From: Amphiscolops sp. MND2022 | Lineage: Eukaryota | Assembly: GCA_964187785.1 (NCBI GenBank) | Contig: OZ076409.1 | Coordinates: forward strand, 26,662,001-26,726,000 | Direction: 5' to 3' | Length of the DNA: 64,000 nt | Shown: in pieces, positions 6,151 to 61,078 of the stretch | Position numbering within the stretch: position 1 is the stretch's first letter | Layout of the letters: every line of letters starts with the position of its first letter | Program-made: the position numbers and the translations under genes | Notes under the pieces: generated by a model | Seen by the model: the letters and a program-made list of their open reading frames with translations, nothing else | The model's database searches: none | Told to the model about the DNA's origin: nothing

Positions 6151-6334
6151 CAAGGGCTCCGCCGATGTTGGAAAGAATATGCTCCCAGCCGTACTGGGGA
6201 GTTTCACGGACCACCTCGTAGGACAGGTCCTCGAAATATATCTCCACCCTGAGGAAGTTCTTCTGAAGGAAGTTGCGCAATTTTTCCTCCGAGTACTCCT
6301 TGTCCAGAAACGTCATTTTCTTGTCCGCTTCTGT
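6151..6334 (-). CDS. DEG/ENaC exon (beta11-beta12 to start of TM2)
   Basis: tttgtag|ACA acceptor, G|gtaatt donor (phase 1). NFLRVEIYFEDLSYEVVRETPQYGWEHILSNIGGALG is the canonical pre-TM2 signature (cf. L-x-D-I-G-G-x-x-G). Confidence 0.95.
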
Positions 6335-6731
6335 CTACAAACAACCAAAAATGTCAACATATGATCATACGTACTAAAGTGGCCATTCGTCTGTAACTTT
6401 CAAGACAGGAATGGATTGACACGTTTGGTTCTAAAGGAAAAAGTATCTTGAAGGTTAATCTCGATTGACTAAATGAACTCCGAAGTGTGAATACAAATGA
6501 ACGAACAATCGACTCACTCTACCTGACATATTATATTTGATAGAAAATAACCACACTAAGTAGTCGATTTTTCAATTTATAGTTTTAGTTTATTTGAAAA
6601 AATCAATGTTCGTAATAAAAGTTGTTTCATGGTTAATTCATTTGAATAAATGAGTAAGATCCCTTTTAAAACTTAGAATCATTGGATGAGCTCCTAATCT
6701 TTTATGTCCGTTTACTACGTAGTAAACTTGC

Positions 6732-6910
6732 TTGTTCATAGGAGGAGTTTTTCTGCAGCTTCTCGTTGAGGTAGCGGGCGTCAATCTTCCTCTGCACGAA
6801 TGGCACCAGCACCTTTTTCACACTCTCCTTCACCAGGAAACTCTCGTCTCCTAGCAATCGACGCAGCAGATGGTACATGTACTTCTCCCCCGGCCACGTA
6901 GACTCCGAAA
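6732..6910 (-). CDS. DEG/ENaC exon (S-x-S-x-W-P motif and knuckle)
   Basis: ttgttcag|TT acceptor (phase 1) gives VSESTWPGEKY; 3' end is either a GC donor CAA|gcaagt (6731) or A|gtttac 4 nt further. Confidence 0.85.
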
Positions 6911-7047
6911 CTGAACAACACAAAACAACTCACATCAAATCTTTTGCGTCTCATTCGTTTAATATCCATGAGTGCATGCATTTTGACGTCACAGTGGTTT
7001 GTCTACCTTAGTCTTGTAGTGAACTACCAGAAGTACCTATATTCACT

Positions 7048-7337
7048 CCCTGATAAAGGCTACAATCGTTACAAGGATCTTGCAAGATCCTTACATTTAT
7101 TACATTCCTTCGAAGATCTCGCAGATCTTGCCAGTAAATGTAATCTTTGCAAGAATATTACAAGGAAATGCAATCCCTGTAAGATCTTCCAAGGAAACAC
7201 CTTCCTTGCAAGATCATGTAAGGAAATCAGTTACTTGCAAGGATCTTGCAAGATGCTTTAAACGAAGCCAAGGAAAATGCATTATCTTGTAAGAACTTGC
7301 AAGATCCTTGCAAGGAAAGCATTGTTCCCAGCTAGGG
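7048..7337. mobile_element. Short, diverged copy of the CTTGCAAG TIR family
   Basis: CCCTG...CTAGGG ends; interior made of gatcttgcaag repeats as at 56729-57540. Confidence 0.75.
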
Positions 7338-7494
7338 ATGTTATGTGCACGGAAACAAACAGACCAGCCCTTAGATCATTCGGCATATGCTGGGAACGTT
7401 TACTGAAAGTTTCCACAGCTTCAACTACTGGCGGGGACCAAGGTTCAATTGATGCATTGGTTCATGGGTCATCTTGGCTTTTCGATTGACTAAC

Positions 7495-7818
7495 CAATTT
7501 TTGAGAAGAGTGTTTCTGTGCAAGCTTGTTGGCATCCGCAGCCGAATCGACTCAGAGTGTAGTCCTGGTACACTTTGTCTCTGCAGGCAGTGACGTCTTT
7601 GTCAACCACGTTGCACAGACTGCGGTTCACGATCATGAGTGACTCGACACAGTTGCACTCGAGCCAGAGACGCTCCTGGATGCAGAGTTTGTTGCAGGCG
7701 AGATATGAGTAGTCGTAGTTGCCGTCCGTCGTCACATTCATCGGCAGCTCGGGGGGCCAGTCGTCTCTACATTGCCCGTAGCGCCCTTTCATACGCGACA
7801 GTTCCTGTTGTCTCACAC
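7495..7818 (-). CDS. DEG/ENaC exon (Cys-rich thumb domain)
   Basis: ctacag|GT acceptor, G|gttagt donor (phase 1/1). RYGQC...YSYLACNKLCIQE...ECNCV...C...C...CGCQQAC thumb cysteine ladder. Confidence 0.93.
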
Positions 7819-8496: not shown

Positions 8497-8661
8497 CTAT
8501 GCTCGTGTGTATGCCGGGAGTGAGAGTGATACCCAGTTCATCTGGCATAGGGAGCTGTTTCGGGCTCTGGATTGACAACCTGGCACCGACCCGATGAGAG
8601 AGCAGCCCCAGGTAGTTACCAGTATCCAGAAACAGAGTCAATTGCAGTGCGTGTTGAACAC
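8497..8661 (-). CDS. DEG/ENaC exon (palm / beta-ball strands)
   Basis: cccag|GT acceptor, G|gtaggg donor (phase 1/1). GVQHALQLTLFLD...VGARLSIQSPKQLPMPDELGITLTPGIHTSI matches G-x-x-x-G/A-L-x-L-x-L and G-A-R-x-x-I-H...P...G-I-x-L-x-P-G. Confidence 0.93.
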
Positions 8662-13302: not shown

Positions 13303-13549
13303 CTGCCTGGGAGATGTTCCTGGGGAATGCGAGTAGAGATGTGGCATCGTTGAAGGTCCAGCAGTTGCCGTAGATGTCGTTCTGGAACTCCTTGAACCAG
13401 TCTTTGGAGCAGGCCTGGCCGTCGAACGCGCACTGAATGATGAAGTCGTTCTGCTGGTGGCCCAGCTGCCTCAGTTCTTCTGCGTTGATCATTCCCCCCA
13501 GACCGACCACGTCAGAATAGTCCTCGCGGATGGACGAGTGATAGTACAC
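13303..13549 (-). CDS. DEG/ENaC exon (finger end / beta-ball region)
   Basis: atacag|GTG acceptor (phase 0), G|gtgcgt donor (phase 1). LGHQQNDFIIQCAFDGQAC and YGNCWTFN are conserved DEG/ENaC motifs. Confidence 0.93.
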
Positions 13550-14375: not shown

Positions 14376-14559
14376 CTTCCATTCTTTGTTAGAGACGGCG
14401 GCATCTTTGGATTCGCCCAAGAACGAGTGGATGGAGTCTTCTTGTTCGTGGCAGAAGTGGCAAGTGTGACGACAGTTGTGCTTCATAAACGAGTAATGGG
14501 GGTCACTAATCGAACAAAAACCCTGCTTTGCCCACTGCTTGCACGACTCGTACATGTCT
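14376..14559 (-). CDS. Exon encoding ShK (ShKT) toxin-like domain
   Basis: tttgcag|A acceptor (phase 2), AAG|gttaaa donor (phase 0). DMYESCKQWAKQGFCSISDPHYSFMKHNCRHTCHFC matches the ShKT pattern D-x4-C-xx-W-A-xx-G-x-C...M-xxx-C-xx-T-C-xx-C. Confidence 0.85.
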
Positions 14560-17500
14560 CTGCAAACCACATCAAACAAAATTACACAAAACCAAAACAA
14601 TTTTATCGATGTCCACCGGTGACTACAGGGTCAACTGTAGGTGAACCACCAGTTGTTATGCAAAAGGTGCGACTGCCACCTCAGTGCTGCACCAACGGTC
14701 TGTGATTGGCGGGCCATCATTATAGTTTAATTCATGAAAAAAATACAATCAATTGAATCCCTAGCGTTTTTTTCAGTCTATTCTTGGGTTAAGTTGAACG
14801 CAGTTTCAGAAACATGTTAAACTTCATTCAACTTACAAACCTCAAATAAACAGGTTTGTTTAAAATGAGGATTATGACCTGTAATTTGCCTGATTTGTTA
14901 TTTTTAAAAACAATTAGCTTGAATTGAACGGAAACCAATTTTAAGGAAAACACTTTCAGACATACACGACAGATTTACTCCGCTTCGACGCATGAAACAT
15001 AACAATCCCTTACGGATACTTTTGTAGTAAATGAAACCTCAAGCTGGGAATGAAACCAACTAGCGATAGAATTCAAAAGCGTAGTATAAAATTAATGGAA
15101 TCGGTTATTTTGCGCCGCCCAGAAGCACCATTTGGTTTCCAATATTAAAGGCTAATTTCCGTTTTAACGCTTGAGCTGCAGTCAAGTGGGTTGTTCAATT
15201 GATCCGACTAAAAATGATCGGTAACAAGTGATTTTAATTGCAAAACTGAATTTCCCGAAAATCAGCGATTTCTTCATCAGTTTGTGGGCTCGCTTGATGA
15301 CGTGGCCGTAGGACTGAACTTCGATAAACTGTTGAGTAAAATTTTTTCAAATAAAGAATATTGTTTTTCAAATATAAAGATAAAATAAGTTCGTAGTTTT
15401 TCACTCAACAATTGTTTAATGAAATGCATAATCGAAAAACAATTCATATATGCCTTCTGTTTTGTATATACATATGGAGAGATATGAGCTTCTCAAGAAA
15501 CAGTGACTGAAATTGAAAATTTGGCAAAATTTTCTGATATTTTTGAATGCATGTAGTAAATAGGTTTAGAGCGAAAACTATACTTAGCGAGCGTCATAAA
15601 GACAGAACGGAGACGGAAAAACTTCTTGTTTGCACTTAGACCCTCTACATCAATTGCAATTCACCGCAAATTAATATAATTGGATAGTTTAGGGACATGC
15701 TCAAGGGAATGATACTTCCAATTTTCATCGAATTTGTTGCTTAAAGTTGGCTTTGTGATGAAAATTGAAATCATTTTCCCCGCGTAATCTTCCATGATAC
15801 AACAGTCAGCGGCAAACTTGAAATGCTTCCTAGGTTATTCTTAAATTCCGTGGTCTTTATCAGTCTGAAAAATTCGATTTTCAGTTTTAAGAATACTAAC
15901 TAGAAAACATGCCTCTGGCAATCTTGTCTTGTTCTGAACTTGCATAACTGTTTCGACCTCAAATTTAACTGGATTGCGAAGAAACTTTCAAATTTGATTT
16001 CACATTTGAGCAATGTTGAAGTCGCCAAATCATGTTCTAAGTCTTCAGCCGTAAAATTGCATCTAATTATATTTACGGGCCATTCGGCCATTCCAGCTAG
16101 CTCCATCAGTTATGTCTAAGTCGAACAAAGATGAAAAACTCGAGCCATTGGTAATTAACTTGGTAAGAGAATCAATTGGCCAGGGGTAGAATAGTCTACT
16201 GAAGCCCCTCCCCTAGAGCTGAAATAGCAGAAGCGCGTCTCCGCAAAAAGGCTGAGCACTTCAAAAACACTCTTTTCCAACGATTTTGCGAAATCACATT
16301 AATCATTCTGATATTTACTCTTTTGCTCAATCACAATCACCGGCGGAATTTTTTGTTGTCAAAAATAACCAGATTTTCGGGCAAATTCAATTGAGGAATG
16401 ATTAGCAAACGCTTTAAAGGTCAATACGATCACCATTTGTTTGACGAAGATCAATTTTGAAGCAGTATTAAAAATTTTGACCATTTTTTTCATAATAAAA
16501 CCATGGATTTTTAAGATTGTCCAAGGCATAAGAATAGAATATTAGCAAATATATATTTGCTGACTAAAACAGATCATGAATTTTTATATTCTCCTCCCCA
16601 ATTTAATTCAACTGTATCGGCTCTTTTTGTCAATAATGCCCCCCTCACATTACAGGGGTTTAAAAACTCAGTTTTTACCGAACTTATTGAACTAAAAGAA
16701 CTTTTAAAGATTTTCTAAAACACTCTAATTATCATTATTTTGTTGGAGTCACGTAATTTCTAACAGTCAGCTAGTATTTTATGACAATTTTTCAATATTT
16801 TGGCTTGATTTACCTATGTGGGCGGGGGGCTTTTGGTTGGGTGTTGTCAGGGGGAGAAAATTTTCCACTGCATCATAGTGAAGAAACAGATTCAATCTCA
16901 AAATTGATATTCAGACACATCGGAACGGGGGATTTCAGAGATATTGTTCATTATCAGCGTCGTTTTCATTCTGATTAAGTGAATGATGCTCAAATAAATT
17001 CATCCATTCAAACCATCTTTCAAATCTTTCAACAGAATTTCCTGTCTCTGGATACTTGAACACACAATTTTCATCTATCCATTGAAATTATAATTTGAAT
17101 GACGCAAGCAAAATGGTTGATAAAACCAGTTCAGAAAACATTGATAGCCTCTTTTGTCTTTTGAGCTGGGAGGTTCATCAAAATTGGCATTCTGGACAAC
17201 TTTGAATGACAGATGAAAAATCTCACAATGAAAAAGTTTTTTAAAAAATTATTAGGTGTTAGTGTGAAGGTGACGTTTTTGACGTAACCTCGGCAGAACA
17301 GGCTCTGGAAACTCCATTTTGACACTTTAAGCATGACCAAATATGGAATAAACGAAACAATACAAACAAAATCACAAATCACGGCAGTTCTGAAGCAGCT
17401 AGCATGAAGATGAGAAAGCCTTCTAATCAGCCAAACTAACAAATTACTAGAGAAGAAGAAAGTTATTTCCCCATTACAGCGGGGTGGACGCCAAATAAGC

Positions 17501-18026
17501 AGATCTGCTTTTCTAAGTCGAGGCCTTTTCGGATGCTATTTCCTCATAGCAGGCTATGGTACCATTTTTGCAGCCGAGTGGTTAATGTGAGTTGCTTATC
17601 GTGAGTTTGCCCGAACGAATTGGCAATGAAAAGTTCTTAACATTTGTCGAACGGGGTCCAGCGTGTAATTCCTTGGAGGAAATGCGTCCGAAAAAGTACG
17701 TTCAGTTTGTTGAATTACTTCGGGGATAGTCCACAAAATGGGTTTTGTTGATTAAATTTGAATTTTTAGCCTGAAATGCGGTATCAATTTTTCATGGAAG
17801 GGTTTTCAAATTCATGGGAAATTAATTTAGTTGCTTTGATCCGTTTCAGTTTTGCGTGTTCCTGAAACGGGGGGTCCGATTTTTTTTCAAAACCTGTTTG
17901 GTAGCAGTTCTCAAAAAATACCGCTTTTGCACTCCGCTTCTTGTTCATATCAACACTCAAGTTTATAGAAAATGGTACCCTTTTTGTGTTTCATCTTCCA
18001 GTCTGGATTGTTTACTCGTGATGTTG

Positions 18027-18297
18027 TGTACTGACCTACATTAATAACCAATAGTATTTAGATGTTTATAGAATGTTCTAGAATGTACATTTATTTATTA
18101 TTGAATGATTGTAAATCTCTACTCCCTCAGAGAGAGAAAGCTAATAATCAGTATTCGGTTGACTTCCTTTTTGTTCTACTACTACCACCTCGAACTAGTT
18201 GTAATAAAGTTAGCTAGCTAGCCTGTCTCTTAGCCGCTTTTAGTAGTTGTGAATAGTACCACCAATAAAGCAATAACAACACTTTGAAAGCAGCACA
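18027..18297 (+). repeat. 5' LTR of element 1
   Basis: tgtactgacc...gcagcaca, direct repeat of 36131-36401; contains AATAAA. Confidence 0.97.
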
Positions 18298-18300
18298 ATT

Positions 18301-18312
18301 TGGTGCGACTCG
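18301..18312 (+). promoter_or_regulatory. Primer-binding site of element 1
   Basis: TGGTGCGACTCG 3 nt after the 5' LTR; resembles a tRNA-His PBS (TGGTGCCGTGACTCG) lacking CGT (inference). Confidence 0.65.
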
Positions 18313-20167
18313 TAAAATGTCTTGCCTTTTTTCCTGGATGATTTCTCTTCTCTCAACAATAATACAAATACCACGCTCCATCTTTGAAATTCTCTGGAAT
18401 TGCAGTGAAATCTTTCTAGAATTTCTTGAAAATTTAGTCTGTGACTTTCTGAATTTCATCAATAAATACATCATCGTTCGAAATACAATTTCTCCACTAA
18501 AACAATTAACTCAAATATAACAAATTTTCTTCACTACCGGTTTATCACGTTTTCTAACACGTCGAAACGGTTTCATTTCAGACTGATTTATCCATTGTGA
18601 CACAGTTCTGTTTCTCTTCTCTTTCCAGACTGATTTATCCGTAAGTGACACAGTTCTGTTCTCTATACTGATTTATCACAGCTAATCCGGAAGCTTGTTG
18701 AAACAGTTCTTTGATGTTTGTCTGGTTTATCAAGGTTTTCTAACACCTTTGAAACAGCAACATTTGTCTGGTTTATCAAGGTTTTCTAACACCTTTGACA
18801 CAGCAACTTTCTTCAATCCTGCTATCTTGAACGTCAGGTGGACTCCTGGTGTAATAGTTGACTGAGTGCATGTACAGCTCCACTCACCTATAAGCACATA
18901 CGCCTCAAGATCAACTTCGTGTTGGCAGAAAACCTGGATTTTCTACTTTTACGTTTCGGATCCATTTTATACAAAAAATTCTTACAAAATAGTTTTCAGA
19001 AATAGTCTCTGAATACAAAAAAAGGCAACCAAGACTATCTACAAAAAGCAACCAAGCACTATTCCATTTCTTTTCTTATTGTCGACAAACAATACAAATA
19101 ATTTCACAAAACTTAATTAATAAAAGTAACTTCAAAACTTGAACAACACAAGAAAAATAACAACACAATTCACCCTCAATATTATATCGAATACTTTCAA
19201 CAGTAATAATTTTAACATAACCTACAAAACAATTATTTTAACAAAATACCACATACAATTCTCACAATTCTTTTGCCCTAACATCAAAAGTAAGGCATGT
19301 AAAAAAACAGACACTGTAAAGTTAGTTTTCTACTTTCAGGCACCCACAATTCCAATCCCCTCCTGTAAGACTTAGACAATCAGACAGCGTTACCAGCTCA
19401 CTCTGATTCTAAGACTGACTAAAATCGTTAGTTAAGTGTAAACGTCTTTAAAGAGAATCGAGAGGACATCGAACTACGTTCGAATCTTCAAAATTCTCAG
19501 GAAGCAAAAGTAAAAGTAAAAGAAACAAAGATCAAACTTTGATCTTGATCAGTATTGATCAGACTTTGGATAGTGGACGTTGATTGTTCAGAGTTCCACT
19601 CCCTTAGTCTTAAAACACACAACCCACTTAAAATTAAAACAACCTTAGTTTTTCTGGAAGTGTCAGTAACCTTATGTTAGACACTTTAAAGTGATCCAGA
19701 CTTAAAATTACATTTAGTTTCTGTTAGCAATCCTTGAGGTTGAATACAGATCCTACTGCATCCGCTTCTTTCTTCTCTATCCAAAACTATTAACATCCCA
19801 AATAACTTCAAATTAAAATACAAATTATATGAACCCTAATATATACAATCAAATAATTTATCCTTTCAACTTTTACATTCCACCAATTAGCTCCCTTCAG
19901 AACCCTACATCAAACGACTTTGAAAGATTAATTGAACGATATCAACAATATTTTTTCTTTATCATAAATCAACAAAGACATTATCCAAGAGCTCCAACTT
20001 AGAAAATTTCTATAAAAATTAGTTTCAACGTTTTAATCTTCACATTATAACATGTGGGAAAAAGTTACCACAGTAGTACTTATTACAACATACACGTTTT
20101 GTTTCTTATTTATAGTTTTTGTTCTCCTTGAAAAAATACTTACAGTGATAAGAGATAAACGTTAAAA

Positions 20168-23100
20168 ATGTCCTCAATAACAACCCCTCTACCCTTCCAA
20201 ACTCCCGTCATTAAAAATGCAAAAGTTGTAAAATTAGAACTAAATCCATTCCTACAAAACATTATTTCACATTATACACAACCACTCCCTTTTGAAATGA
20301 ACCTCACACAATCGAAACAATCCCTCTTATTAGAGAACATTTGGACACATATCTCTTCTATATTAGATATAAAGTTTTAACTATCACCGCAGAATACCCA
20401 GCTTTTCAAATCTCCTTTCCTCAACAAAGACCTAATTCATCTCATATACAGAAGAACAATAAACCCAATTAACCTCCAAGTTCCTATTAAACAAGTTTTT
20501 CACGCTTTTCTAAACAATGTGAAAGACCACAACCTAGCACATGAAATTCCAAAATTTAGTCCAAATGCACTTGACGACCTTCAACGATATATAAACAATT
20601 TCGATGTAGAAATTATTGAAAGATTAGTTGATCCTGAAGGCAATCCTCATCATTGGTTACAAACTGATATACTACGAATTCAAAATTTCCTCTACCATTA
20701 TTTCAAAGACTTAACATTAAATGACCAAATAATTCCTCAGATCAAAGTAATATCTCTATTCCTCAGAAAATACTTCAGATTTAATTATCAACTATTATGG
20801 TCACAACAAGATCAATCTGCTTTTACAGCATTCCCAGATCATCTTACAGTTGACGAATGTTTACCATTCATCATCAGTGAACAAAATGAACATCCTTATT
20901 TTCATAAACCACAATCGATTACAAAACAAACTTTAGATTACATACGTTTTGATCCTTTATTAATTACAGAAAATGATCTATTTGCAGACAATAGACCTTA
21001 TCACTATGAACAAAATTCTCAAGTTCAGCAAAATTTACATTTTAACACTAACAATTCTACCGAAGATGATAATACCGATCAGGAAAATACACTCCAACAA
21101 CAACATCAAAATGAAATAAATAACGATAATGAGTTTACAACCCAAGAATCTACAATTTCAACACATAATCCATCACAAGCAGGAACATCAACATCAACAC
21201 ACACTCAATCCTTTAGAGTTCCCACTAGAGTTGTAAATCAAAGACAAAAAACACATAGTCCTCAATCTCACTTAGATACATCTCCAAACCGTAATATAAC
21301 TTTCAACCTTCCATACACGGATGAAACACACGACGAAACCCATTACACAATACATGATGAGATTCTGACTGCAACTAGTGCTCAGAATACTTCTGTTAAC
21401 GTTGCATCTCCAACAAGAACTCTTTCTGATTCCACAAGATACATTACTCGACCTAGATACGATCCTCCATCAATCCCTTTGCTTTCCGATCAAATAGATC
21501 GATTTCTTCAAACAACAATTTTAATGATAATCCCCAAACTTCCAATCAAAATTACGATCCATTTAATTATAACTTTTATCCTCCATCAACCACAACTACC
21601 AATACAAATATTAACCAAAATTACTCTCAAAGTAATACAACTTCAATAACACAAAATCCCTTCATACAATTATCACATACCACTGCTTCACAATATACAT
21701 ATTCTCAAAATCAAGCAACTTCGTATCCTTCCACTTCTTATTCTAACAACGTACAAGCTTCTCAAAGGAAACTTCAAAACCCTCCACTTACACATATACC
21801 AACTGATCCTTTGTATCAAATGCATCCAAATCCTAATCCTAATCCAAATCCATTACCACAAAATACAATTCGAAATATACCTCCTCAACTTACACAACAA
21901 TTAGCTCCTACACTCCAATAATTACCAATGCCACAAGATACCTTTATGAACATGTCCGCTTCAATACCAGAACCTATGGAACCTTTTGATGGTTTAGACC
22001 ATTCTTATACCCCTGAAGAATATCTACAACAAGTCGAAGCTAGATTAACCTTCGCTATAAGTGAAGAACCTCAGAATAATCCTATAAAATACAAATCATG
22101 GCATAACAGACGCATGGCTTATATACAATGTTCATTAACAGGAACAGCTCTCGATTGGTACACTAACCTTCATATATCATATAAACAACAATGGAATTCC
22201 TTTGTACATTTATTCAAAAAACAATTTTCATCTCAAAAAACAGCTTACTACGCCCAAGTAGAAGCTATGTCACTCATGAAAAAAGATAATGAAACACTAC
22301 GCCACTTCGCCCTTAGAGTACAACAATTAGTTAAAAAGGGATGGTGTCATGAAAATGCAGCTACCATAAACCTCAAAAATAATGAAATCTTTACTAAAGG
22401 AGTACCCAAGAAGTTAAAAGATTTTGCCCATAAACGACAAGTTAAACATGTATCAACATTACTTGAACCTTCAATACTATTTCACACACTTGTTAGACAT
22501 GTCGATTCTGAAGATATTGCTAATGAAAAAATTAGAACTAATGACTTAGCTCTAGAAATAAACAAAGTATCACTTGAAGATGATACAAGCAAAAAGGAAT
22601 TTGAACATGAAGATCATATATTGGTTACTCAATCTGGAGACCCAAATAACAAAAGCAAACCAGCTTATAGAAAATATTGTTCCTATTGTCACAAAAATAA
22701 TCATAGTATCTCAAATTGCTATCAAAAACAACGCGATGATGAATACCAAAAATATAAGAACCAAAGATCACGAACTCCTCAACAATCCTTTGTACAATAT
22801 TTTCGCAGTAAACCTAACAGTTCACAAGAAAATCGAAATGACAATACAAATCCTTACTCCTCCGATAATGATCGTAACAAACATAATCAAAACAACTATA
22901 ATGAGAGATACCGAAATAATGATAGATATCGTAGCAATAGTAGAGAATATTCGCAAAACAACTACCGATCTAATTCTCGACAAAGATATTATAATCGATC
23001 TCGAAGCCCATATAGATCTCGATTTGATAATTATTAACAAAGAAGAACTCCATCTAGATCTCCATATAGATCTCCATATAGAAACAATTCCAATTACAGT

Positions 23101-23400
23101 TATAACTCTCGCTCAAGATACAGATCTCGTTCTCAATCACAAGGAAGTTCCTTAAAAAGATATAATTATCCATATAGATCTCCATCAAGACCTAGAGATT
23201 TTAGATCACGATCTAGAACACCCTCACGAAATAGACCACAAAACAGAATAAATCAAGTAGACGTTAAATCCACAAAAGACAATGATAGTACAAAGTTTGA
23301 AATCCATACATGTCAAACAACTGAAATAGCTAATACAATCACTCCTTACAGTTGGTTTTATCCATTATATATTCACGCTTCTGAAGCCAAGGATAATATA
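20168..23400 (+). pseudogene. gag: Extended gag (N-terminal domain, N/Q/T/S-rich linker, capsid, CCHC knuckle, RS-rich tail), disrupted
   Basis: ORFs 20168 and 20519 share a frame (one stop); frameshift near 21480; capsid-like PFDG...LTGTALDWY...W..FV.LFKKQF; zinc knuckle CSYCHKNNHSISNC; stops at 21919 and 23035; in frame with protease. Confidence 0.85.
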
Positions 23401-28169: not shown

Positions 28170-28359
28170 CTTTCTCAAAAATCCTGCTGAGATACGGAAT
28201 ACAGAAAAGAATACACAAAGAAAATTTGAAAGGAAAAGAGAAAGTTTGAAGCTTAATGTGGAATTGAATGAAAAATACTTCACAAGAGATAATAAAAGAG
28301 AAAAGTCCTAATTGATATAAAATTATAAACTAATATACAAATTGAACAAACTACCATAA

Positions 28360-29759: not shown

Positions 29760-29761
29760 CT

Positions 29762-34088: not shown

Positions 34089-34494
34089 CTGGTAATTATG
34101 GGATAATCACTTTAAATTGTTAACACTTATCACTTAATCTCTTAACAACCTGTCAAAATTAATTGAGTCTACACGCATATACCTGCTACGCAGGATTATA
34201 GTACATATTTGATATTAAAACATTTCTTTAAAATAAAATATTATAAAAAATTTCAATCATGACATAAAAATTTTTAAAAAAATTTCCCAATTGCTCCTCC
34301 TTTTAATTGACCGATTTCAACAAATAAGTACTTATATGAAAGATATTTAAAAATCCTTCAAAAAGCTTCCAAAATACAGCAACTTAATTCTTAAAATTAA
34401 AAAGTTATAACATCACAAATTACATCAAAAAACTGTCAACTACGAAATTCTATTTTCAAAGAAACTTTATTGTAAACAAACTAATCTATTTTAG

Positions 34495-36130: not shown

Positions 36131-36401
36131 TGTACTGACCTACATTAATAACCAATAGTATTTAGATGTTTATAGAATGTTCTAGAATGTACATTTATTT
36201 GTTATTGAATGATTGTAAATCTCTACTCCCTCAGAGAGAGAAAGCTAATAATCTGTATTCGGTTGACTTCCTTTTTGTTCTACTTCTACCACCTCGAACT
36301 AGTTGTAATAAAGTTAACTAGCTAGCCTGTCTCTTAGCCGCTTTTAGTAGTTGTGAATAGTACCACCAATAACGCAATAACAACACTTTAAAAGCAGCAC
36401 A
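36131..36401 (+). repeat. 3' LTR of element 1
   Basis: Direct repeat of 18027-18297; preceded by purine-rich aaaaaccgggatgga (PPT-like). Confidence 0.97.
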
Positions 36402-42753: not shown

Positions 42754-43356
42754 TGTTTTGTTTATATTGCTCACTGCGCCATGAAGTATTTCTAGGATAA
42801 ACTCGAGAAAAGAGATGAGAATCAATGTTTACTCTAAACGTAAGGTTATTGTTATGATGTAAGCTTTTAGAGTATAGGCTAAGTAGTTGTTAGTAAACAA
42901 ACTAAAAACAGCAACGGAGATATAATGTTGTTTATCAACAGTTTTTTCTACAAATACAGAGTAATAACTTTCGTCAGTGCTGTACGCAACTATTACAGTG
43001 ATGAATGTTTTCCTCCAGATTAAAACACCACAGATTAAATAGACCTTTCCAACACAAACTTGAATTATCTCAACTGTTACTTCATTTCTGTGCAACATTG
43101 AGCTGACCGCACAACGCATTTTAATCTTTTTACCAAATATTTGTTTCTCTAGAGGATCGAAAAAGTCGCCGACTGACTTCTTTGGCGTTGAAAGATTTCT
43201 TTCCTTGACTTTGTTTTCTCCGAAAGGGTCGTTGTTCATAATATTTGGATATTTTACAACCATCTTGAAGTAATAAGAGCTGAGATGACATTTTTCTCAA
43301 AAACAGATCCTACGGAAACTTTGAAAAACTATGAATGGGGTGTCGATTAGAGGCGT

Positions 43357-43740
43357 TTTTAGTCGGCGCGTTTTCCTTTTAAGAAAAAAAAAGCGCTCGA
43401 CTATAACAGTGACCTTTTTTTCTTCAGACCACAGACCTCACCGTGATGCGTCCACTTGTTAGGGAAACTCCTGAAACTCCCTATGGACAAATCCGGCCAG
43501 TGCAAACTTAGTGCAAAGGGTCCCCATTTTCATTTTTTTAAACTTTTTTAACGTTACCTACAAAACCAGACGAGACTAAAGAGTCGCCCCTTTCAATTTA
43601 TTTTCGTCACTGTGCGAATTTTTTCCGGAATTTTTTTAATGTCTCAAATGTCCCCTTTTCAAGTTTTCTGATATTTTGCAACTGAATGTATTTCAATAAA
43701 TCCCAGAGGTATGTGAAAAAAGGTTTCTGAAAGGTATGCG
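43357..43740 (+). mobile_element. Truncated family A element
   Basis: ttttAGTCGGCGC start and family-typical interior; 3' end replaced by a 14-bp tandem array. Confidence 0.75.
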
Positions 43741-43760
43741 AAAAACTTGTCGAGGGCAAA

Positions 43761-43908
43761 TCGTCGAATGCAACTCGCCGACTGCAACTCGCCGAATGCA
43801 TCTCGCCGAATGCAACTCGCCGAATGCAACTCGCCGAATGCAACTCGCCGACTGCAACTCGCCGAATGTATCTCGCCGAATGCAACTCGCCGAATGCAAC
43901 TCGCCGAA
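43761..43908. repeat. 14-bp minisatellite (TCGCCGAATGCAAC)n
   Basis: About 10 tandem units. Confidence 0.95.
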
Positions 43909-44140
43909 ATTAAATGGTAGAAAACGAGTCCAAGACTATTTCGTCGAATATTAATTGGGTGCAAACTTGTCGAGTAATTACAGAATACTAATCCGCTGTT
44001 GATACCCCACCAGAAGTTTTTTTTATAAATTTTATTGCCAAGTGCTAATTATGGATATATTTTATTTAATAGATGCGTGACAATTTTCAGCTTTACACAT
44101 AAAGTAGCTTTAATGGTTGAATAATTGCTTGAAATGTAAG

Positions 44141-44722
44141 TTTTAGTCGGCGCTTGTCTTTAGAAAAAAGCGATAATAGTCATTGCTTTCGTAAGTTTTT
44201 TTCGATACACCTGAACTAGTCAAATTAGTTCTACCAAACTTTCTCCAATTTTGGCAAAGTCCGTCACTGTCACTTAGTCTAAGGGTCCGTGTCCGTTCGA
44301 GTCTCGCACGAAACCAAATTTATTAAGTTTTTCAAATCTAATCTCTTTCCTTCTTCGATTTTCAGCAGATTTTCTGCTTCGTTTTGCGATCTTAAATGCA
44401 CATATTTTTTCCGTCTCTGTGCGTCTTTGTTTCCGGTACTTTTATTTGGTCAAAGGATACCCCCTCGTTTTTATAGCTGATTTCGGCTTGGGAAAAAGTA
44501 GTTTTGCAAGCTAAAAACTCCTTTTCGGCACTATGAGACCTTCCCAGTTTCGTGTTTCCAGTTGGGGAAAAAGTGGTTTCCGAGTCCTATGAATATCCCT
44601 TGGGTTATTTTTCGGCACTAGAAAATTAATTGAATTAAAACAATAGTGTCCTTTTCATATTTAAGAGACTTCGGTTTTTTAAAAGTTGAGCGGTCGCCGA
44701 CTTCGGCCAGTCGCGGCTTGTT
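44141..44722 (+). mobile_element. Helentron/DINE-1-like element, family A
   Basis: ttttAGTCGGCGC ... CGCCGACTtcggccagtcgcggCTTGTT. Confidence 0.8.
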
Positions 44723-44782
44723 TATAGTTTACAGTGTAAGACTTTTGCTCGTATTCACAGTACGATCACAAAACCAGCAGTA

Positions 44783-45458
44783 CAGTGGTGTGAAGAAAGA
44801 ATGCGACTTAGCTGCTCAAAAAGGCTAATTTTGCAGTCTCATATCTCCAAAACTATTCGAAATGGTTCAATTTTGCAAAAACAGAAGTTTCTTGAATTTT
44901 TGCTATAAATACAATGGTTTTTGTTTGAAATTTCAACCATCATTGGTTCCGAAGTTAGAAACATGTGATTTTGGGAGGAAAATAATTAAAATTGCTAATT
45001 TTTGAGAAAATATCAGTGATCCAATGAATCTTTTTTGATCAATTTTGCCTTGCAGATACACTCAAATCTCTCGAAAACGAAGATGAAATTTGATTTTGGA
45101 TATATTTGAAAAATGTATATTGGTGGGAGTTTTACCAAGTGTAAGTCTAAAATTCCTATCTTAATACATGTATTTCCAATTTTACTGAACGAAAAAGTGC
45201 TCCCATTTTCGTTTTCTTGGTGATTTCCACAAACAAAAACTATCATGGGATTGAGAAAAATCAGAGAAATTTTCTGGTATAATTTTCATGTAAAAATTAT
45301 CCCCGAAAAACGGTGAAATAATAAAAATACTGATTTTTGCGAGCGATTGAGGCTCATTAAACCAATGATATTTGAGCAGCGAGGCGTAGTGAACCAATCA
45401 GATTAGAGAATTCTTTGCATTCTGAGCAACTAAGTCGCATTCTTTCTTCACACCACTC
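44783..45458. mobile_element. Tc1/mariner-type MITE
   Basis: ~37-bp TIRs CAGTGGTGTGAAGAAAGAATGCGACTTAGCTGCTCA / TGAGCAACTAAGTCGCATTCTTTCTTCACACCACTC, flanked by TA on both sides; no ORF. Confidence 0.88.
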
Positions 45459-45909
45459 TATATTTATATATGATGAGTTTCTGTATTTGCGACGAGAATT
45501 TTCAGCGAGTCTTGCTTTCCGACGAGTTTTCCATCTTGTATTTTCCAGTTGTTTTTGACAAGTTTTCCTCTTTTTAAACAAGTACCTTGAAAACAAAAGA
45601 GTGCCCAACGTTTGAATTTTTTCAAATTATGATGCAAAGTCCGTTATTTATTGGCCGCGCTCCAGCCCAAAGATTTTGTTCTCGCCAAAATAGGTCAGCG
45701 TGAAGAATATACTCGAGATCAACGGGCGTCTTATTTAAGCATTGCTCAAATCACGTGACGAAGATATTGAATCTATCATCAAGTGAACTTCAATTTCAGT
45801 CATTGAAAACCCTAGAATTTGGATTTCTGAATAGGAGAGGCAATAAAATACGAGGAATAACTTCTAGAGGTGTTTTGGCAATATAGCCTAAAGGAGTAAC
45901 ATCTCAGAA

Positions 45910-45981
45910 AGAAATTTTAATATATGGAAAGAGTAAGAATGGCTTAGAAATTTTAATATATGGAAAGAGTAAGAATGGCTT
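45910..45981. repeat. 36-bp perfect tandem duplication
   Basis: agaaattttaatatatggaaagagtaagaatggctt x2. Confidence 0.9.
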
Positions 45982-47532
45982 CAAACGTCAGACGGTTTTA
46001 AAATTTTGACGTTCATTCTGATCGCGCTTTCCAAAGTCAATTTCCCTGAAGTTTGCGAAATGTATCATCATTTAGTCGAAATTCAACACGTTTTCAGGTT
46101 TGGTAAGCGCGCACTAAGACTGCTTGTGTTTCACAGAAAAGTGTTACTTTTTCGTCTTCCCCAACTATCCAACTGATTCTCACGTATTTAGAGTCATCGA
46201 CAATGTTGATCAAAAAATGCAATACACGTCAAACTTGTGTTCACTTCTATTACTTCAATTTTGACGTCATAAAAGTCTCAAAGGGACGTCTCATTTATTT
46301 CGACATGAATTTATTACTCTTGGACCAGAGCAGCTCAAGTGAATGGTGCCCATAAATGCAAACATTACCTGTGCAGTTATCGATTGACTTTGGGTCAGTC
46401 TAAATCTTCGCTATCAGGTTCTTGAGGGGCACAAAAGTGACAAAGCAAGGTGGTGAATAAAAATGCATTTGGGAAAAAGTTATAATCTCGACTCGTTATC
46501 AGCGCAGAGAAAACAATGATTAAAGAGCTCGGGTATCCAAGATAGCCATTGAGGATTTTTGGGTGTTATTGATTCTTTTGCTTACCGACTTGAGACAAGC
46601 GATTAACCGAAAGAAAAAAAGCATGGACAACGCTCGCGTTTACACAGAAATGAAGATTATAAGGAATCAATTGGTATAAAAGGGGAGTGGACAAACCTTT
46701 CCACCTTTCAAACAATAGGGAACCATGTGAAATACGGGCATACCGAAGAAAGTGAATATCCGTTTTTCGATGTTTGTAACCTCGTGCGATTCTACAATAG
46801 TTGGCCGATCCGAATGACCTTTTTTGACCAAACAATGTTCAAATCAGCACTTTAAATTGATTTGGTCTAAGGTTTATATATTGCTGTCTAAAAATGTCAA
46901 GATTCACAATCTACTGCTATATGCTGGTAAGTTTTTCTTGGAATGATTCGGAAACTTTTGTACTTTTTATGTCAACTTAATATTGAGTCCAGTATTATAT
47001 GATCTCGATACTCCGTATTGTATTGTTCCTAAGGAAACGTGAGAATCCGCGGAAGCCCGTGACCCCGGCTGGTTTTACGAATAGAACTACTTTGTAAAAT
47101 GCAATTCCTTGCCTAATGATTAGCCCGAAACTAGTATTTTTGCGTGAGACTGCATTTTTAATACCCTAGTGAACAGTTGAGACACGTTATGGAAGAAACT
47201 GGCAGATTTTTTTGCCCAAAATTTTGAATGTTAAAGCCTTATTTTGTTAAGTGAGCTGCAAGATCTTTTATACTATATGGTCTCATATTTGAAATTTTTA
47301 CCAGGAGAAAACTAAAACTTAGAAGTCAGTAGAAAATACTATCAGTTTGTGGAGAGCAGAGTCGAACCTTAGGCCCAAAATGCCACAAAAGTTCCTCTAA
47401 AGTTCCGGTAATTCAAACTCCCCAATGAAACCCAATTCGACACCGAGTACGGGTGATTAACAAATACTAAAAAAGATGATCCGAAAATCCCACAATTGTT
47501 TAGAATGATTAAAATACTAAAAAGTGACTAAC

Positions 47533-47780
47533 TTGACTTCGCTTGAGTCGCACTTGAGTTCTTTGTTGCCGCAGTTCCTCTCGTCTACGGGGGTCTTGCA
47601 GTCGGGCACCCCGTCACAGAGCCACGACTGGTGTATACACCTGCTGCCGTCCTCGCACATGGTGCGTCCATCCTCTACTCCGTTGACGTCACTCTCGTTG
47701 AGCCCGTGACACCCTATGAACCAAGATATGCAGTGCTTCTCATCCAGCCCGTTGGGACAGTCGGGGGAGCCATCACAGAG
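47533..47780 (-). CDS. Exon: LDLa repeats 6-7 and a final Cys (not in the ORF track)
   Basis: Translated by hand: ttttag|LCDGSPDCPNGLDEKHC...MCEDGSRCIHQSWLCDGVPDCKTPVDERNCGNKELKCDSSEVK; donor AA|gttagt (phase 2), 248 nt. Confidence 0.9.
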
Positions 47781-48237: not shown

Positions 48238-48498
48238 CTGATGTTGATCGATGCAGGCGTAGTTGTGACCGGGGCACTTGACCTGGTGAGGGGCACACTC
48301 GTGTTTGGCACAGAGCTGTTTGTCCTCATCCTCGTCGTACATGCACTCCCCGAACCCATTGCACACCCACGAGGCGTCAATGCACCAGGTGCTCATACCA
48401 CATTGTACCAGACCCTCCTTCTCGCAATTGACCCTCCCCGCACACTGAGCCTCGTCACTCCCCTTGGGACAATCTATGTACCCGTCACACTGCCAACT
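48238..48498 (-). CDS. Exon: LDLa repeats 4-6
   Basis: ttgcag|AGT acceptor, CAG|gtaaat donor, 261 nt phase 0/0. SWQCDGYIDCPKGSDEAQC, WVCNGFGECMYDEDE, CAPHQVKCPGHNYACIDQHQ; completes CIDE|SWQCDG across the intron. Confidence 0.92.
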
Positions 48499-49394: not shown

Positions 49395-49687
49395 CTCATC
49401 GATGCAATTGAAACTCTCTTTGCATTGAACCCTGCTAATAGCAGAGCAGTTCTGCTTCGGGCAGTTGGCTTCATCGTAACCATTGCGCTTGCAATGCACT
49501 CTCCCGTCACAGTACCAGAACTCAGGGATCCAGCTGAGAGAGTCCCCACATCGCATGTTCACCTCCCCGAACTTCTTGGGCATGGGGGTCGGTCTCTCGG
49601 TCTCTAGTCTCTTGCTGTAGTTGCGGAACTGTTCATCCCAAATCTCCGCGAACTGGGCAAGTTGCACAGGGTCTTCATCTTCACCGG
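49395..49687 (-). CDS. Exon: end of LDLa repeat 2, linker, LDLa repeat 3, start of repeat 4
   Basis: ttgttccag|CC acceptor (phase 1) joins previous exon to give DCP-A-GEDED; GAG|gtatga donor (phase 0). Encodes WYCDGRVHCKRNGYDEANC and CSAISRVQCKESFNCIDE. Confidence 0.9.
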
Positions 49688-49697
49688 CTGGAACAAA

Positions 49698-57540: not shown

Positions 57541-58181
57541 TCCCTACAGAAAAAATGTCGAATGAAAGTTTCTCCCAAAAAATATTAAGTGGTTCGGAAT
57601 GATCAAATGAAAATGAATCTAGTCGACGTGTATTGCAGATTTAGAGCATGGTTCCCAAAGTATATTATTGTTATGGTAGTTAAGTTAACTGATCAAGCAT
57701 AAAATTTTTGTTTCTTAGAAGGTTTTTGTCTGACAACAATGTCTGCCAGGTGCTACTGGAAATAGCTGGCACTCTGCGTTCAAAAGTCCTTAGATGGCAA
57801 CGCTACGATGGTAAGCGTGCGCAGTGGGGAAGCAAGAGCCGAACCGCGCAATGGCCCGATGGACTAAATTGTTTATGTTTACAGGAGTACAAAAAACCAA
57901 AATGTTTATTTTTGCATTGCCTGACTTTTTGAATTTGCTTCAGATTATTTTCCTTTGGTTTTTTAAATGTTTTCAGTTTCAAAAACTCTTTTGTTAGTCT
58001 GAAAAGTTCCTCCTACTCCGCATCTGGCGAGTGTTAAACTTTCAGATCGTTTCATTTTGAGCTATAATGAAACTGTTTACTGACTCAGGTGCTGTTTACT
58101 GACTGTTTACTGGCAAATCGGATATGGCTATAAAACGATGAAAAGCAGTGTATCCGAATTGTTGACATTTTAGGCTGGCTG

Positions 58182-59165
58182 CCCGGGTTGACCCTCCATG
58201 GATATCTTAGTAAGATCTTGAGATCTTGGCAAGATCTTGGAACAATCTTGGCTAAGATCTTTTCAAGATCTTACCATGGTATTCATTTTGCCATGGTAAG
58301 ATCTTATCAAGAGAGCCATGTTCCCAAAAAAATTATTGTAAAATCCTAATTCGGCAAAAAAATCTGGAAGGAAGTAAAAAAAAATCAACATCTATGCAGA
58401 TTTATTTACATAGTTAGACAATTTTTTTCTAGCAATGTATAAAATTTGATAGAAGAGATAATGTTTATTTAGAAAGGCACTGGTTAAATTGTTCTTTCAA
58501 TTGCAACACTGTCGCCAACAAAGGCGTCAGAAAATCCTCGAGCAGAATCATTGCCCAAACTGGAGCAATGACCGCCGTTTCTACCAGTAATAAGGCTGCT
58601 GAAACAGCCTCAAAGAAAGCTGGCGATATGATTTTACAAATTTTCCGGATTTTTAGGTGTTTCCTGTGTAGCTTTCCGATAGTGGCTCTGGACATGTGAG
58701 AGCATTTTTTCTCAGTCTCTGGAATCGACAGGAGCGATAAATTACAAGTTTTGAACCTTTCAATTGGTGCATTTGCATTTTCAGTATTAAACAGGAGAGG
58801 AGTTTTAGGATTCTCACCATAATTTCGGAAGCCAGAATACGTTATCGTAGTTTTTCGCACAATTTTGCATGGAAAATTTTTTCAGCAGGTTGAAGCATTT
58901 TGATTATGAAAACGAGTAGAAATAGTCACTGTTGGGTGAATTCAGCTTTCAGATTGAGCCTCGGCTGCTTGTACCGAAGATATAGTGTTTTTGTTGAGTG
59001 TATAATCTTAGAATTTTGTCCATCGTGATAAGATACGATCTTGGAATAATGTATCATGTTAGTAAGATCTTAATAAGAATCTTGTCATGGAATCCATGGT
59101 TGCGAAGTTGTAGTAAGAATTTGGAAAGGTCTTGCCAAGACAGCCAAGATGCTGGTAAGATGCTA
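58182..59165. mobile_element. Probable related TIR element with AAGATCTT subterminal repeats
   Basis: CCCGGGTTG start then aagatctt repeats (58200-58310), mirrored by similar repeats at ~59030-59165; right end not sharp. Confidence 0.5.
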
Positions 59166-59770
59166 GTTTATGAAACAAAAAACGATTGTTTTACTGTTTT
59201 TTGTAGGGTTTTCCAAATCGGTCGAAGTGACAAGTTAGGATAATTACGAACTCGGAACATCTACAACACGCCCAAGATAAGAGACCCAGAAAATTTCAAA
59301 AGGTGTTCTTCTTTTCGTTTTTGTCATTTTCATTCGATAAAACAAAACACCTTTTTTGGCCACTATGCTACTTATTGCTACCTTAATACACGGTATTTTT
59401 GGGCACTATGCTTTTTTTCGCATAATCTTTTTTCCAAAGGAACCCCGTTGTTTCAATAAAATAATTTTGCCATGAACGTTTTGGATACTTGTACAAATTT
59501 GTTAGATACATGTGTACGGATATGAGTAAAGGGGATTATCGACATCATCCAGTTTTCAATTGGTACCTATATTATATATGTTCCATCTACAGTATATTTC
59601 AACAAACGAACTGATCAACGAGGGGCGTCATACATTCATGTATTTAACTGCTGCTGAATTCAATACAATGAAGATTTCTGTAATGGATCTTCATGGATGA
59701 GTCATAAGTGATCAATTGATAATTTTTAATAGCTCAGATATCGCCAAACTTTACTAATGATTTGTAAATA

Positions 59771-60200
59771 AACAAGACGCCCGCTAAGCACCGGGATATT
59801 TTCCTCCCTTTTGGCCTTCACCAACTGAGCCATTGCTATTTTGGGAGGGGGAATAGAATCTAAGAAAAAGATCTAAAATATAGTGATTTTAGGTCTTATT
59901 CCCTTTAGATCTTATTCCCGTCCTGAAATTTTAGGTCTTATTCCCCTGAGATCTTATTCCCATTTTTACTTTAGATATTATTCCCTCCTCTCAGTAGACA
60001 CAGATGATGATTTTCCTCCCCCATTGAAAATGTGGGTCGGAAAATAATAACTTACTCAGCCTCCCTACTCAGCCTTGAAGGAACTGAGTAAGTGGAGTAT
60101 GTAGTACAAAGTGGAGTTTTGGCAGAATTTGGGAAAAAAACGCAACACAGATGATGATTTTCCTCCCCCATTGAAAATGTGGGTCGGAAAATAAAAATAA
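59771..60200 (-). mobile_element. Helentron/DINE-1-like element, family B, with duplicated terminus
   Basis: Matches 52864-53250; acacagatgatgattttcctcccccattgaaaatgtgggtcggaaaataa occurs twice (~59999 and ~60145). Confidence 0.75.
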
Positions 60201-60832
60201 AACCAACATCCATAAAAAAGTGGAGTAATAGATGAAAACAAACATGATGTTCCAAACAAAATGGCCCGAGGTAATTTTTCAAAAGCGCCATTTTCTCTTG
60301 AAACTTCAATAGTAAAAAGTCAACTTCTTGTGAGAAGACATTTTTCAATGACAATTTCAGTTTTGAAAAAACACACCTGATAACTTTATCATGCTTTTCT
60401 TCTTTGTTGAATAATGCAAAATGATAACTAATTACCAATATCAAGACTTATTGGATATAAATAACGGGCACCACAGTCTATGAATGTTTAATCGGAAACG
60501 TATCCAGCATAATTTTTTCGAAGGCGGACAAAACGGAAGAAGCAAGAAAACACCCAAAGTAATCTAGGAAAAATCACAAGGTACATAACTACTTAAAACT
60601 GCTACTATGCTTCTTGCGAGCAAAAACGTTCGGTTTGATCGAACACCTTCTGAGGATGTAATTCCTTCGTTCCACTTTTCAAGAAGTAAGAATTTTAAGG
60701 ATTAAAGTATTAGCAGCCCATCAAAAATGTTCCCATTGTGATTTGAACAAAGCAACTTGATAATTGTTTACCGAAGACTGAATGTAATCTTCAGTGAGAC
60801 ATTTATTTCATGTTAGAAGTAGATGTTCATAC

Positions 60833-61078
60833 CTGGACAATCAGCGATCTGGTCTCCCACGTGATAACTCCATATGCACCTGCTGCTGCTGTTGCACTGG
60901 AAGGAGTAGAGGTCAAAAACTGGGAAGTTTAGGCAGGAGTTCTGGGAGCAAACATCTGGATTCTCGTCGCTCCCATCCGGACAATGCTGGATACCATCAC
61001 ACATGTCCCAGAAGCGGATACACCCTTGACTCCACCCCCCACCAGGACACTTGATCTCCCAGTGTTCCACCCTGCAGT
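60833..61078 (-). CDS. Exon of LDLa-ShK-DEG/ENaC gene: LDLa repeat 1 and most of repeat 2
   Basis: tttttag|AC acceptor, G|gtatga donor (phase 1 to phase 1, 246 nt). Encodes CRVEHWEIKC...CIRFWDMCDGIQHCPDGSDENPDVC and CLNF...QCNSSSRC...ADCP, typical LDLa C-D-G-x-x-x-C-x-D-G-S-D-E pattern. Confidence 0.9.

Follow-up and report, generated by a model that had tools for sequence, protein, structure and literature searches.

A channel gene larger than the window

The window, that is, the whole stretch of 64,000 nucleotides analysed here, is filled from 1 to 64000 by a minus-strand gene of at least 158 kb that extends past both ends. In its protein, an HG motif, TM1, strands beta1-beta2 and finger helix alpha1 precede eight LDLa repeats and a ShK-like domain, after which the finger resumes and gives way to palm, thumb, knuckle and TM2. 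Almost certainly, all ten exons in the window belong to this one gene, and its anatomy, from HG motif to TM2 in a single subunit, is predicted from genome sequence and homology with a confidence that leaves little room for doubt. The features are given below, in C1 coordinates outside the window and in window positions within it.

26816874-26816698 (C1), minus strand: N-terminal exon with a GC donor, right of the window
26815699-26815478 (C1), minus strand: HG/TM1/beta1-beta2 exon, about 92 kb beyond the first window exon
26775002-26774741 (C1), minus strand: exon with alpha1 and LDLa 1, about 52 kb beyond the first window exon
60833..61078, minus strand: exon A, LDLa 2 followed by the greater part of LDLa 3 (Pfam)
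49395..49687, minus strand: exon B, completes LDLa 3, then a linker, LDLa 4 and the N-terminal half of LDLa 5 (Pfam)
48238..48498, minus strand: exon C, completes LDLa 5, then LDLa 6 and the N-terminal half of LDLa 7 (Pfam)
47533..47780, minus strand: exon D, completes LDLa 7, then LDLa 8 and ShK Cys1, ending in phase 2 (Pfam, model)
14560..47532, minus strand: 33 kb intron in which two LTR retrotransposons but no channel or LDLa exon were found
14376..14559, minus strand: exon E, Cys2-6 of the ShK-like domain, then a linker towards the finger helix (Pfam)
13303..13549, minus strand: exon F, finger helices, LGHQ, C-x-F-x-G, YGNCWTFN (Pfam)
8497..8661, minus strand: exon G, palm and beta-ball strands (Pfam)
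7495..7818, minus strand: exon H, cysteine-rich thumb (Pfam)
6732..6910, minus strand: exon I, knuckle region, no Pfam match of its own, 64% identity with the paralog across 39 aa
6151..6334, minus strand: exon J, final palm strand and N-terminal half of TM2 with LSNIGG (Pfam, model)
starts 26658290 (C1), minus strand: second half of TM2, tail and stop, 3.7 kb left of the window

An earlier note on this DNA had drawn ten minus-strand exons chained by intron phases 1,0,0,2,0,1,1,1,0; each was recovered in place, the phases were reproduced, and the 776 codons run without a stop, with AG acceptors throughout and a GC3 of 0.69 against a window GC of 0.36. Pfam recognises LDLa repeats in all four upstream window exons and the ASC domain in four of the five downstream ones, one match of each kind lying under the gathering score. 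Exon I most likely uses a GC donor at 6732; on visual inspection, the frame would likewise be preserved with a GT donor a few bases further along and a later acceptor. The HG and TM1 exon, which the note had proposed to seek to the right of the window, lies there indeed, and the full model comprises 14 exons and 1058 aa in a single open frame. The start codon is still absent from this model and probably resides in a further exon near 26817.3-26817.5 kb (C1). Exons A-D are present twice nearby.

That the LDLa and channel exons form one gene was borne out by a TM1 upstream of the LDLa exons, by collinearity with a RefSeq protein and by paralogous exons that span both critical joins. The RefSeq protein, XP_063725435.1 of Symsagittifera roscoffensis (LOC134853378, P0002; 'uncharacterized protein'), is itself a gene model in which HG motif, TM1, alpha1, eight LDLa repeats, ShK, core and TM2 follow one another as here; it is identical in 543 of 1007 aligned columns (54%) and collinear at every junction. 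The paralog, at 41.82-42.03 Mb of C1, has the same exon order, with beta2 and alpha1 within one exon and the end of LDLa 8, the complete ShK domain and the finger helix within another, whose continuity across the D-E join rules out a missing exon between D and E. XP_063725435.1 is the ortholog of this paralog (90% over 107 aa), not of the gene described here. The claim that the 33 kb intron harbours no TM1 exon also held: tblastn with 152 relatives over four introns gave no TM1, ENaC or LDLa match at E<0.01 in any of them, 14560-47532 included, whereas a control region with the TM1 exon was matched by 83 of the 152, and a concealed TM1 exon is thereby ruled out. Word-index protein searches, which are insensitive (3 proteins returned versus 1283 by HMMER at E<0.001), found no full-length database model of exactly this gene and returned only fragments, namely P0075 (identical over exon G), P0127 and P0178.

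Channel core and inserted modules

The predicted protein has the features by which DEG/ENaC channels are recognised: two TM helices around a large ectodomain, an HG motif ahead of TM1, a Pfam ASC domain, a cysteine-rich thumb and a palm and beta-ball fold. All ten thumb cysteines are common to XP_063725435.1, as are 59 of 70 TM2 residues, and the G-x-S filter of TM2 reads G-L-S, aligned to G-A-S and G-I-S; the HG motif and the TM2 identity together suggest an intact pore. The finger motif in exon F is spelled YGNCWTFN. For a 974-aa stretch of XP_063725435.1, AlphaFold2 gave a mean pLDDT of 79, with most core blocks at 88-98 and a pTM of 0.61, and the top fold matches of this model were FaNaC and ASIC (E 7e-25); the protein atlas returned ASC clusters only, at scores below 0.8.

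FaNaC (7yvb, 8on7), ENaC alpha/beta/gamma (6wth), BASIC/ASIC5 (9mky) and ASIC1 agree with the predicted protein in fold, thumb cysteines, HG motif and the G-x-S filter of TM2; none of them is known to have folded modules in its finger. TM2 carries S-N-I-G-G here, compared with G-D-I-G-G in ASIC1 and A/S-D-I-G-G in FaNaC. Membership of the proton-gated ASICs was rejected on the grounds that TM2 has Asn instead of Asp and that the wrist, F-K-W-P-V-T, lacks a His where we take ASIC1 His73 to fall (ASIC1 was not among the aligned matches). The residues of ASIC proton gating, wrist His73 and Asp78 included, are listed in PMC9949801. The protein also differs from the protease-activated alpha and gamma subunits of vertebrate ENaC, in which polybasic furin-type sites flank an inhibitory tract of the finger, in that its 1058 aa contain no R-x-x-R. 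XP_063725435.1 does contain an RTKR site, within a thumb-loop insert of 25 residues that this gene lacks.

Between alpha1 and the remainder of the finger lies the LDLa array (PF00057). The earlier note had recognised the array and counted at least seven repeats; the array stands, and the count rises to eight with the repeat that shares an exon with alpha1. Its placement of the modules inside the finger agrees with the position of TM1 and the FPSISVCN strand, both upstream of the LDLa exons. Six repeats have six cysteines, and repeats 3 and 4 have four each, the former without Cys4 and Cys6 and the latter without Cys1 and Cys3, so that one whole disulfide pair is absent from each, here as in XP_063725435.1. 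With 43 of 44 LDLa-region cysteines common to both proteins, the same pairs missing, a terminal Asp-Glu in all eight repeats and a net charge of -34, the array points to selection on the modules. As judged by eye, only four repeats (3, 5, 7 and 8) retain a Ca2+ site with its full set of four acidic positions.

The ShK-like domain is assembled across the 33 kb intron. Exon E alone matches positions 4-37 of the 37 in PF01549 (E 2.8e-8) and the missing cysteine is supplied by the join, as had been claimed, with Cys1 in exon D and Cys2-6 in exon E; in the paralog exon and in XP_063725435.1 the match covers positions 1-37. Owing to the join, the first loop is unusually long (C-x11-C, against x9 in the paralog). 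Models of this part are poor: ShK and linker fall below pLDDT 50 in the long XP_063725435.1 model, and the paralog exon with the LDLa end, ShK and finger helix reached 37.8 with an alignment of six rows only.

Module-bearing relatives

Of the 150 nearest representatives, 46 have LDLa repeats; the ones identified are hemichordates, echinoderms and an acoel. A lobster DEG/ENaC protein has them too, and wherever their position could be assessed (28 of 28), the repeats lie inside the finger. Their number ranges from 1 to 15, and other modules found among relatives are CUB, kringle, PAN, F5/8C, TSP1, SRCR, HYR and fn3; amphioxus has the module-bearing design with other modules. Hemichordate, echinoderm and lobster models such as XP_077866593.1, XP_033126039.1, XP_022096860.1 and XP_071517138.1 place their LDLa arrays between beta2 and beta6, as here, but lack ShK, are about 30% identical and often contain CUB, kringle, PAN, SRCR, TSP1 or F5/8C too; the names looked up for them are generic ('uncharacterized', 'degenerin mec-10-like', 'ENaC alpha-like').

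LDLa, ShK and ASC come together in models from two other species. Besides the Symsagittifera protein, XP_070564510.1 (P0041) of Ptychodera flava combines them in one model, which is without TM1 and has its ShK within the array, four repeats before it and one after. A single clade of this protein and the acoel pair was rejected (p-AU 0.002), and with it the idea that the ShK inserts in the acoels and the hemichordate share an origin; ShK was thus probably gained twice in the channel family. The surmise of the earlier note that LDLa-plus-channel models may exist in other invertebrates was therefore well founded, since they are common in databases, and the novelty of this single gene is lower than had been implied. 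A literature search found no published description of this architecture, and the wider class of module-bearing DEG/ENaCs seems undescribed in the literature searched.

How old is the design? Phylogenies were computed from 96 rows (leaving out those without the G-x-C-x-x-F motif or with less than 290 aa of core) and from 40 of these picked by hand; both comprise uncharacterised proteins, with no characterised FaNaC, and are rooted by midpoint or on eight unidentified rows. Module-bearing channels group at an SH-aLRT of 90 only, too little to establish monophyly, and module-free members fall in the same part of the tree. The design may be old in bilaterians or may have been invented repeatedly, and either would alter our understanding of the DEG/ENaC finger domain.

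How might the finger modules act?

LDL-receptor repeats bind Ca2+ and then basic patches of their ligands. We tentatively favour, at somewhat less than even confidence, a scenario by analogy whereby the protein forms a trimeric Na+ channel, alone or with its paralog as family knowledge would predict, and its acidic LDLa array, suspended between alpha1 and the next finger helix, would bind Ca2+ and, once loaded, attach to basic patches of proteins or peptides outside the cell. Ligand binding would shift the finger against thumb and knuckle and alter open probability, much as peptide binding does in FaNaC, whose pocket is placed in finger alpha1-alpha3 by the part of PMC11026163 consulted, which describes this corner as important for gating across the superfamily. 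That relatives place LDLa arrays in the same slot and bear other binding modules is consistent with such a mechanism. Conversely, a long flexible array may fail to transmit force to the finger, a doubt deepened by the pTM and by the low pLDDT of ShK and linker, and an anchoring or trafficking role of the modules would be just as possible.

Among the alternatives, a built-in tether appears rather unlikely: the array would fix the channel to glycocalyx or extracellular matrix, with force (touch, flow or ciliary bending) as the gating stimulus. Several modules of the relatives (TSP1, CUB, F5/8C, HYR, fn3) frequently bind matrix or sugars, although LDLa arrays are better known for binding soluble ligands, and the idea overlaps with ligand gating in that both require a binding partner. 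A matrix-tether model for MEC-4 and ENaC is described in a section of PMC10148893. We also consider it rather unlikely that the modules merely localise, cluster or traffic a channel whose gating is constitutive or set by pH, Ca2+ or Na+. The free variation of module type and number and the module-free members within the same part of the tree would suit this idea; the invariable insertion into the finger, which the consulted part of PMC11026163 links to gating, speaks against it, unless the finger simply offers an insert-tolerant loop.

An improbable alternative assigns the leading role to ShK, as a tethered modulator that inhibits the channel through its own finger or thumb or acts on a neighbouring K+ channel. 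The MMP23 ShK domain acts on a K+ channel, and it is the nearest solved relative of exon E (2k72, E 0.004), likewise a six-cysteine ShK pattern within a larger host protein; here the host is an ion channel, the first loop is longer and three extra residues separate Cys3 and Cys4. The probable double gain and the conservation of the region (20 of 43 residues identical to XP_063725435.1, His-Tyr-x-Phe-Met-Lys invariant in all six aligned rows) would also favour modulation, but this identity does not exceed that of LDLa (0.48) or thumb (0.47). Against it, too, the Lys-Tyr dyad of ShK-type Kv blockers is replaced by a conserved His-Tyr with no Lys before that Tyr, and release by furin was rejected for this gene in view of the missing R-x-x-R. 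Passages of PMC5793123 describe the dyad, and ShK-fold peptides inactive on Kv with or without it. Rather than a pore blocker, ShK is most likely a spacer or interaction module, stabilised by disulfides, at the foot of the array. Finally, although the duplicated exons A-D and an intron end before exon E that reads in-frame Cys-Arg-Asp, and hence a conceivable alternative acceptor, might hint at two genes or a non-functional chimera, this is very improbable given the upstream TM1, the empty intron, the paralog exon that bridges the join, the frame open over 14 exons and the counterparts of exons G-H on other contigs (71% identical over exon H).

Returning to ligand gating, LDLa repeats take part in receptor activation or in the regulation of ligand-gated channels in RXFP1/GRL101-type GPCRs, Neto and LEV-10, which are GPCRs or separate auxiliary subunits, whereas here they sit in the pore-forming subunit itself. 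The parts of the DEG/ENaC literature examined name protons, small peptides, bile acids, force and proteolysis as gating stimuli. Protein or matrix ligands would join this list if a pore-forming subunit itself bore an array of protein-binding repeats at the gating corner. Since the candidate tether could be deleted, a one-gene test of the long-debated tether model would follow. It is possible, though doubtful, that these proteins represent a widespread, uncharacterised bilaterian branch of DEG/ENaCs in which the finger accommodates interchangeable receptor modules (LDLa, CUB, kringle, PAN, F5/8C, TSP1, SRCR, HYR, ShK), with channels gated directly by proteins, lipoproteins or matrix, the acoel pair adding a twice-evolved ShK that perhaps tunes its own channel. 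Elsewhere in the same genome, an intronless frame of 864 aa encodes a channel with LDLa and CUB.

One channel gene with LDLa and ShK modules in its finger

An earlier note had chained ten minus-strand exons (A to J, from 60833..61078 to 6151..6334) in phase, and this holds: they run through 776 codons with no stops, at a GC3 of 0.69 against a window GC of 0.36. Pfam assigns exons A-D to LDLa, E to ShK and F, G, H and J to ASC, with B and G scoring under the gathering threshold and exon I giving no Pfam match; exon F has at least 32 matches in the 1.07 Gb assembly, where the window occupies G000:C1:26662001-26726000. A search extended by 60 kb beyond the left end of the window and by 140 kb beyond its right end recovered the following exons (window numbering, extended past 64000):

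154874-154698, minus: N-terminal exon, upstream of exon A
153699-153478, minus: exon with HG motif, TM1 and FPSISVCN, upstream of exon A
113002-112741, minus: exon coding for finger helix alpha1 plus a further LDLa, upstream of exon A
start 3.7 kb left of the window, minus: TM2 exon

The TM1 and HG-motif exons, which the earlier note had proposed to seek to the right, coincide in one exon on the same strand. The 14-exon model, which does not include the start codon exon, is a single open frame of 1058 aa; it matches XP_063725435.1 (P0002, a Symsagittifera roscoffensis RefSeq model) in 543 of 1007 aligned columns and is collinear with it across every junction. GC donors are required in two of its 13 introns (window 6732 and G000:C1:26816698, both minus), and the exon after PYV in a paralog of the gene may have an unusual donor too.

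That paralog, at C1:41.82-42.03 Mb of the same genome, has the same exon order, and a stretch of it is 90% identical to the Symsagittifera protein, which makes the source organism a probable acoel relative of S. roscoffensis. The proposed join between 47533 and 14559 has its counterpart within a single paralog exon, which holds the end of LDLa 8, a six-cysteine ShK and the finger helix. Another paralog exon spans beta2 and alpha1, and a focal exon spans alpha1 and LDLa 1; with these and the paralog exon across the join, both ends of the insert are fixed by genomic sequence. At the acceptor of the ShK exon (14560-14575, minus), in-frame translation gives Cys-Arg-Asp, which resembles a canonical ShK start; this is probably chance, since the cysteine of the paralog comes from upstream coding sequence. 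This is one channel gene with a conserved insert of eight LDLa repeats and a ShK domain in the finger.

Pore, insert and possible mechanism

The focal protein has the HG motif, a G-L-S filter and a TM2 identical to that of P0002 at 59 of 70 positions, and its predicted pore looks able to conduct. TM2 reads S-N-I-G-G where ASIC1 has G-D-I-G-G, the wrist has no histidine, and the 1058-aa model contains no R-x-x-R site. The first two features reject an ASIC identity, and the last rejects ENaC-type furin activation.

The repeat array stands as first noticed, but its count rises from 'at least 7' to eight, in the focal protein and P0002 alike, as counted with an HMM derived from 176 repeats. Both share 43 of 44 cysteines in this region. 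In both, Cys4 and Cys6 are absent from repeat 3, and Cys1 and Cys3 from repeat 4. As each missing pair consists of disulfide partners, the repeats have apparently been conserved as folded units. The terminal Asp-Glu is present in all eight repeats and the full set of four acidic positions in four of eight; the net charge of the array is -34.

How might the insert act? DEG/ENaC channels are trimers with a Na+ pore. Finger movement is coupled to the pore in this family, according to passages of PMC11026163. We envision, tentatively and at slightly short of an even chance, that the acidic array would bind Ca2+ as well as basic protein ligands and would shift the finger. Alternatively, the LDLa array might tether the channel to matrix for force sensing, which we consider unlikely, or the modules might serve localisation only, which is marginally less likely still.

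A role of the ShK domain as a tethered modulator seems improbable. Among solved structures, the MMP23 domain 2k72 is most closely related to the ShK exon; His-Tyr is invariant and the Lys-Tyr dyad absent. ShK-fold peptides can be Kv-inactive with or without the dyad, as passages of PMC5793123 indicate, and the fold alone therefore predicts little. AlphaFold2, given P0002 from TM1 to TM2 and a 79-row alignment, returned a model (pLDDT 79, pTM 0.61) whose fold is matched best by FaNaC and ASIC; pLDDT is 88-98 in most core blocks, mostly 65-85 in LDLa and below 50 in ShK, and the ShK exon by itself gave no successful structure model.

A split into two genes, with a separate TM1 exon within 14560-47532, is highly improbable, tblastn with 152 relatives giving no matches in four introns, 14560-47532 among them, while 83 of the 152 matched a control region with the TM1 exon. 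As read from the genome, the locus is a real DEG/ENaC and almost certainly one gene.

A class of module-bearing channels

The focal architecture is already in RefSeq, unnamed, and the focal gene is one of many module-bearing channels. HMMER with query P0001 against 1.84 billion representatives gave 1283 matches at E<0.001; the analysis covers the best 150. LDLa occurs in 46 of these 150, and a lobster model has 15 LDLa, bearing out the suspicion that LDLa-plus-channel models may exist elsewhere; in all 28 of the best 150 with both anchor motifs, every LDLa lies between beta2 and beta6. Among 48 of the best 150 chosen by length or cysteine motifs for Pfam, 39 combine LDLa with ASC and one, from Ptychodera, LDLa, ShK and ASC; further domains are CUB, kringle, PAN, F5/8C, TSP1, SRCR, HYR, Xlink and fn3. 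These architectures are gene models, some of which may be mis-joined. Source taxa, looked up for 20 of the best 150, include Saccoglossus (9), Anneissia (2) and, once each, Glandiceps, Acanthaster, Ptychodera, Amphiura, Patiria, Branchiostoma and Symsagittifera; the Amphiura and Patiria relatives are without LDLa, and that of Branchiostoma has kringle and F5/8C in its place.

In a core-only tree with 40 of 96 rows, the channels that bear modules fall together (SH-aLRT 90), module-free members included; no characterised channel is among the rows of the trees. A single clade uniting the acoel pair with the protein from Ptychodera is rejected (p-AU 0.002), so that, from these sequences, ShK was probably gained twice.

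We found no description of LDLa or other modules inside DEG/ENaC in the full-text literature that could be searched, which does not prove absence from print. 'LDL' does not occur in the main texts of PMC9949801, PMC10507113, PMC8791634 and PMC10148893; supplementary alignments or trees of such papers may include module-bearing sequences. The undescribed class is a more interesting result than the single focal gene.

The same genome holds a separate intronless 864-aa frame that combines TM1 and LDLa with what looks by eye like a CUB domain and with a channel core. Among the intronless DEG/ENaC frames, L004 (G000:C1:13666381-13669572, with LDLa) and L008 have LDLa and CUB-like inserts, followed by basic, furin-like finger sites (by eye); unlike the focal gene, they could shed their modules by cleavage. 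The finger of another DEG/ENaC frame, L003 (G000:C2:28080791-28083982), carries dozens of tandem 9-residue DGSDFQYPF-type repeats.

Duplicate copy and neighbouring repeats

G000:C1:26628826-26649537: exons A-D repeated, on a contig of 44.5 kb that lies between two 200-N gaps
18027-36404, plus: LTR retrotransposon, 18.4 kb, with 274 bp LTRs (97.4% identical)
36457-42952, minus: fragmented gypsy-like element with RNase H and integrase, flanked by terminal repeats of 171 bp (94.7% identical)
G000:C1:26602001-26607362: array of a 216-bp tandem satellite, running up to an assembly gap

The stretch 45459-66232 (end in extended numbering), with exons A-D, recurs 79 kb to the left at 99.2-99.3% identity, beyond the TM2 exon and with neither TM1 nor channel exons. 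Most likely this is an unpurged haplotype, and the gene model is unchanged by it. The 18.4 kb element, which the gypsy-like element adjoins, has gag, RT/RNase H and integrase frames, its coding region split across several frames; the large frames 20381-21646 and 32793-34085 have no Pfam match. Frames at 29747-31860 match Pfam Monjiviricetes_fusion (best E 1e-13), and the element is reminiscent of mosquito elements with a captured glycoprotein of chuvirus-like type.
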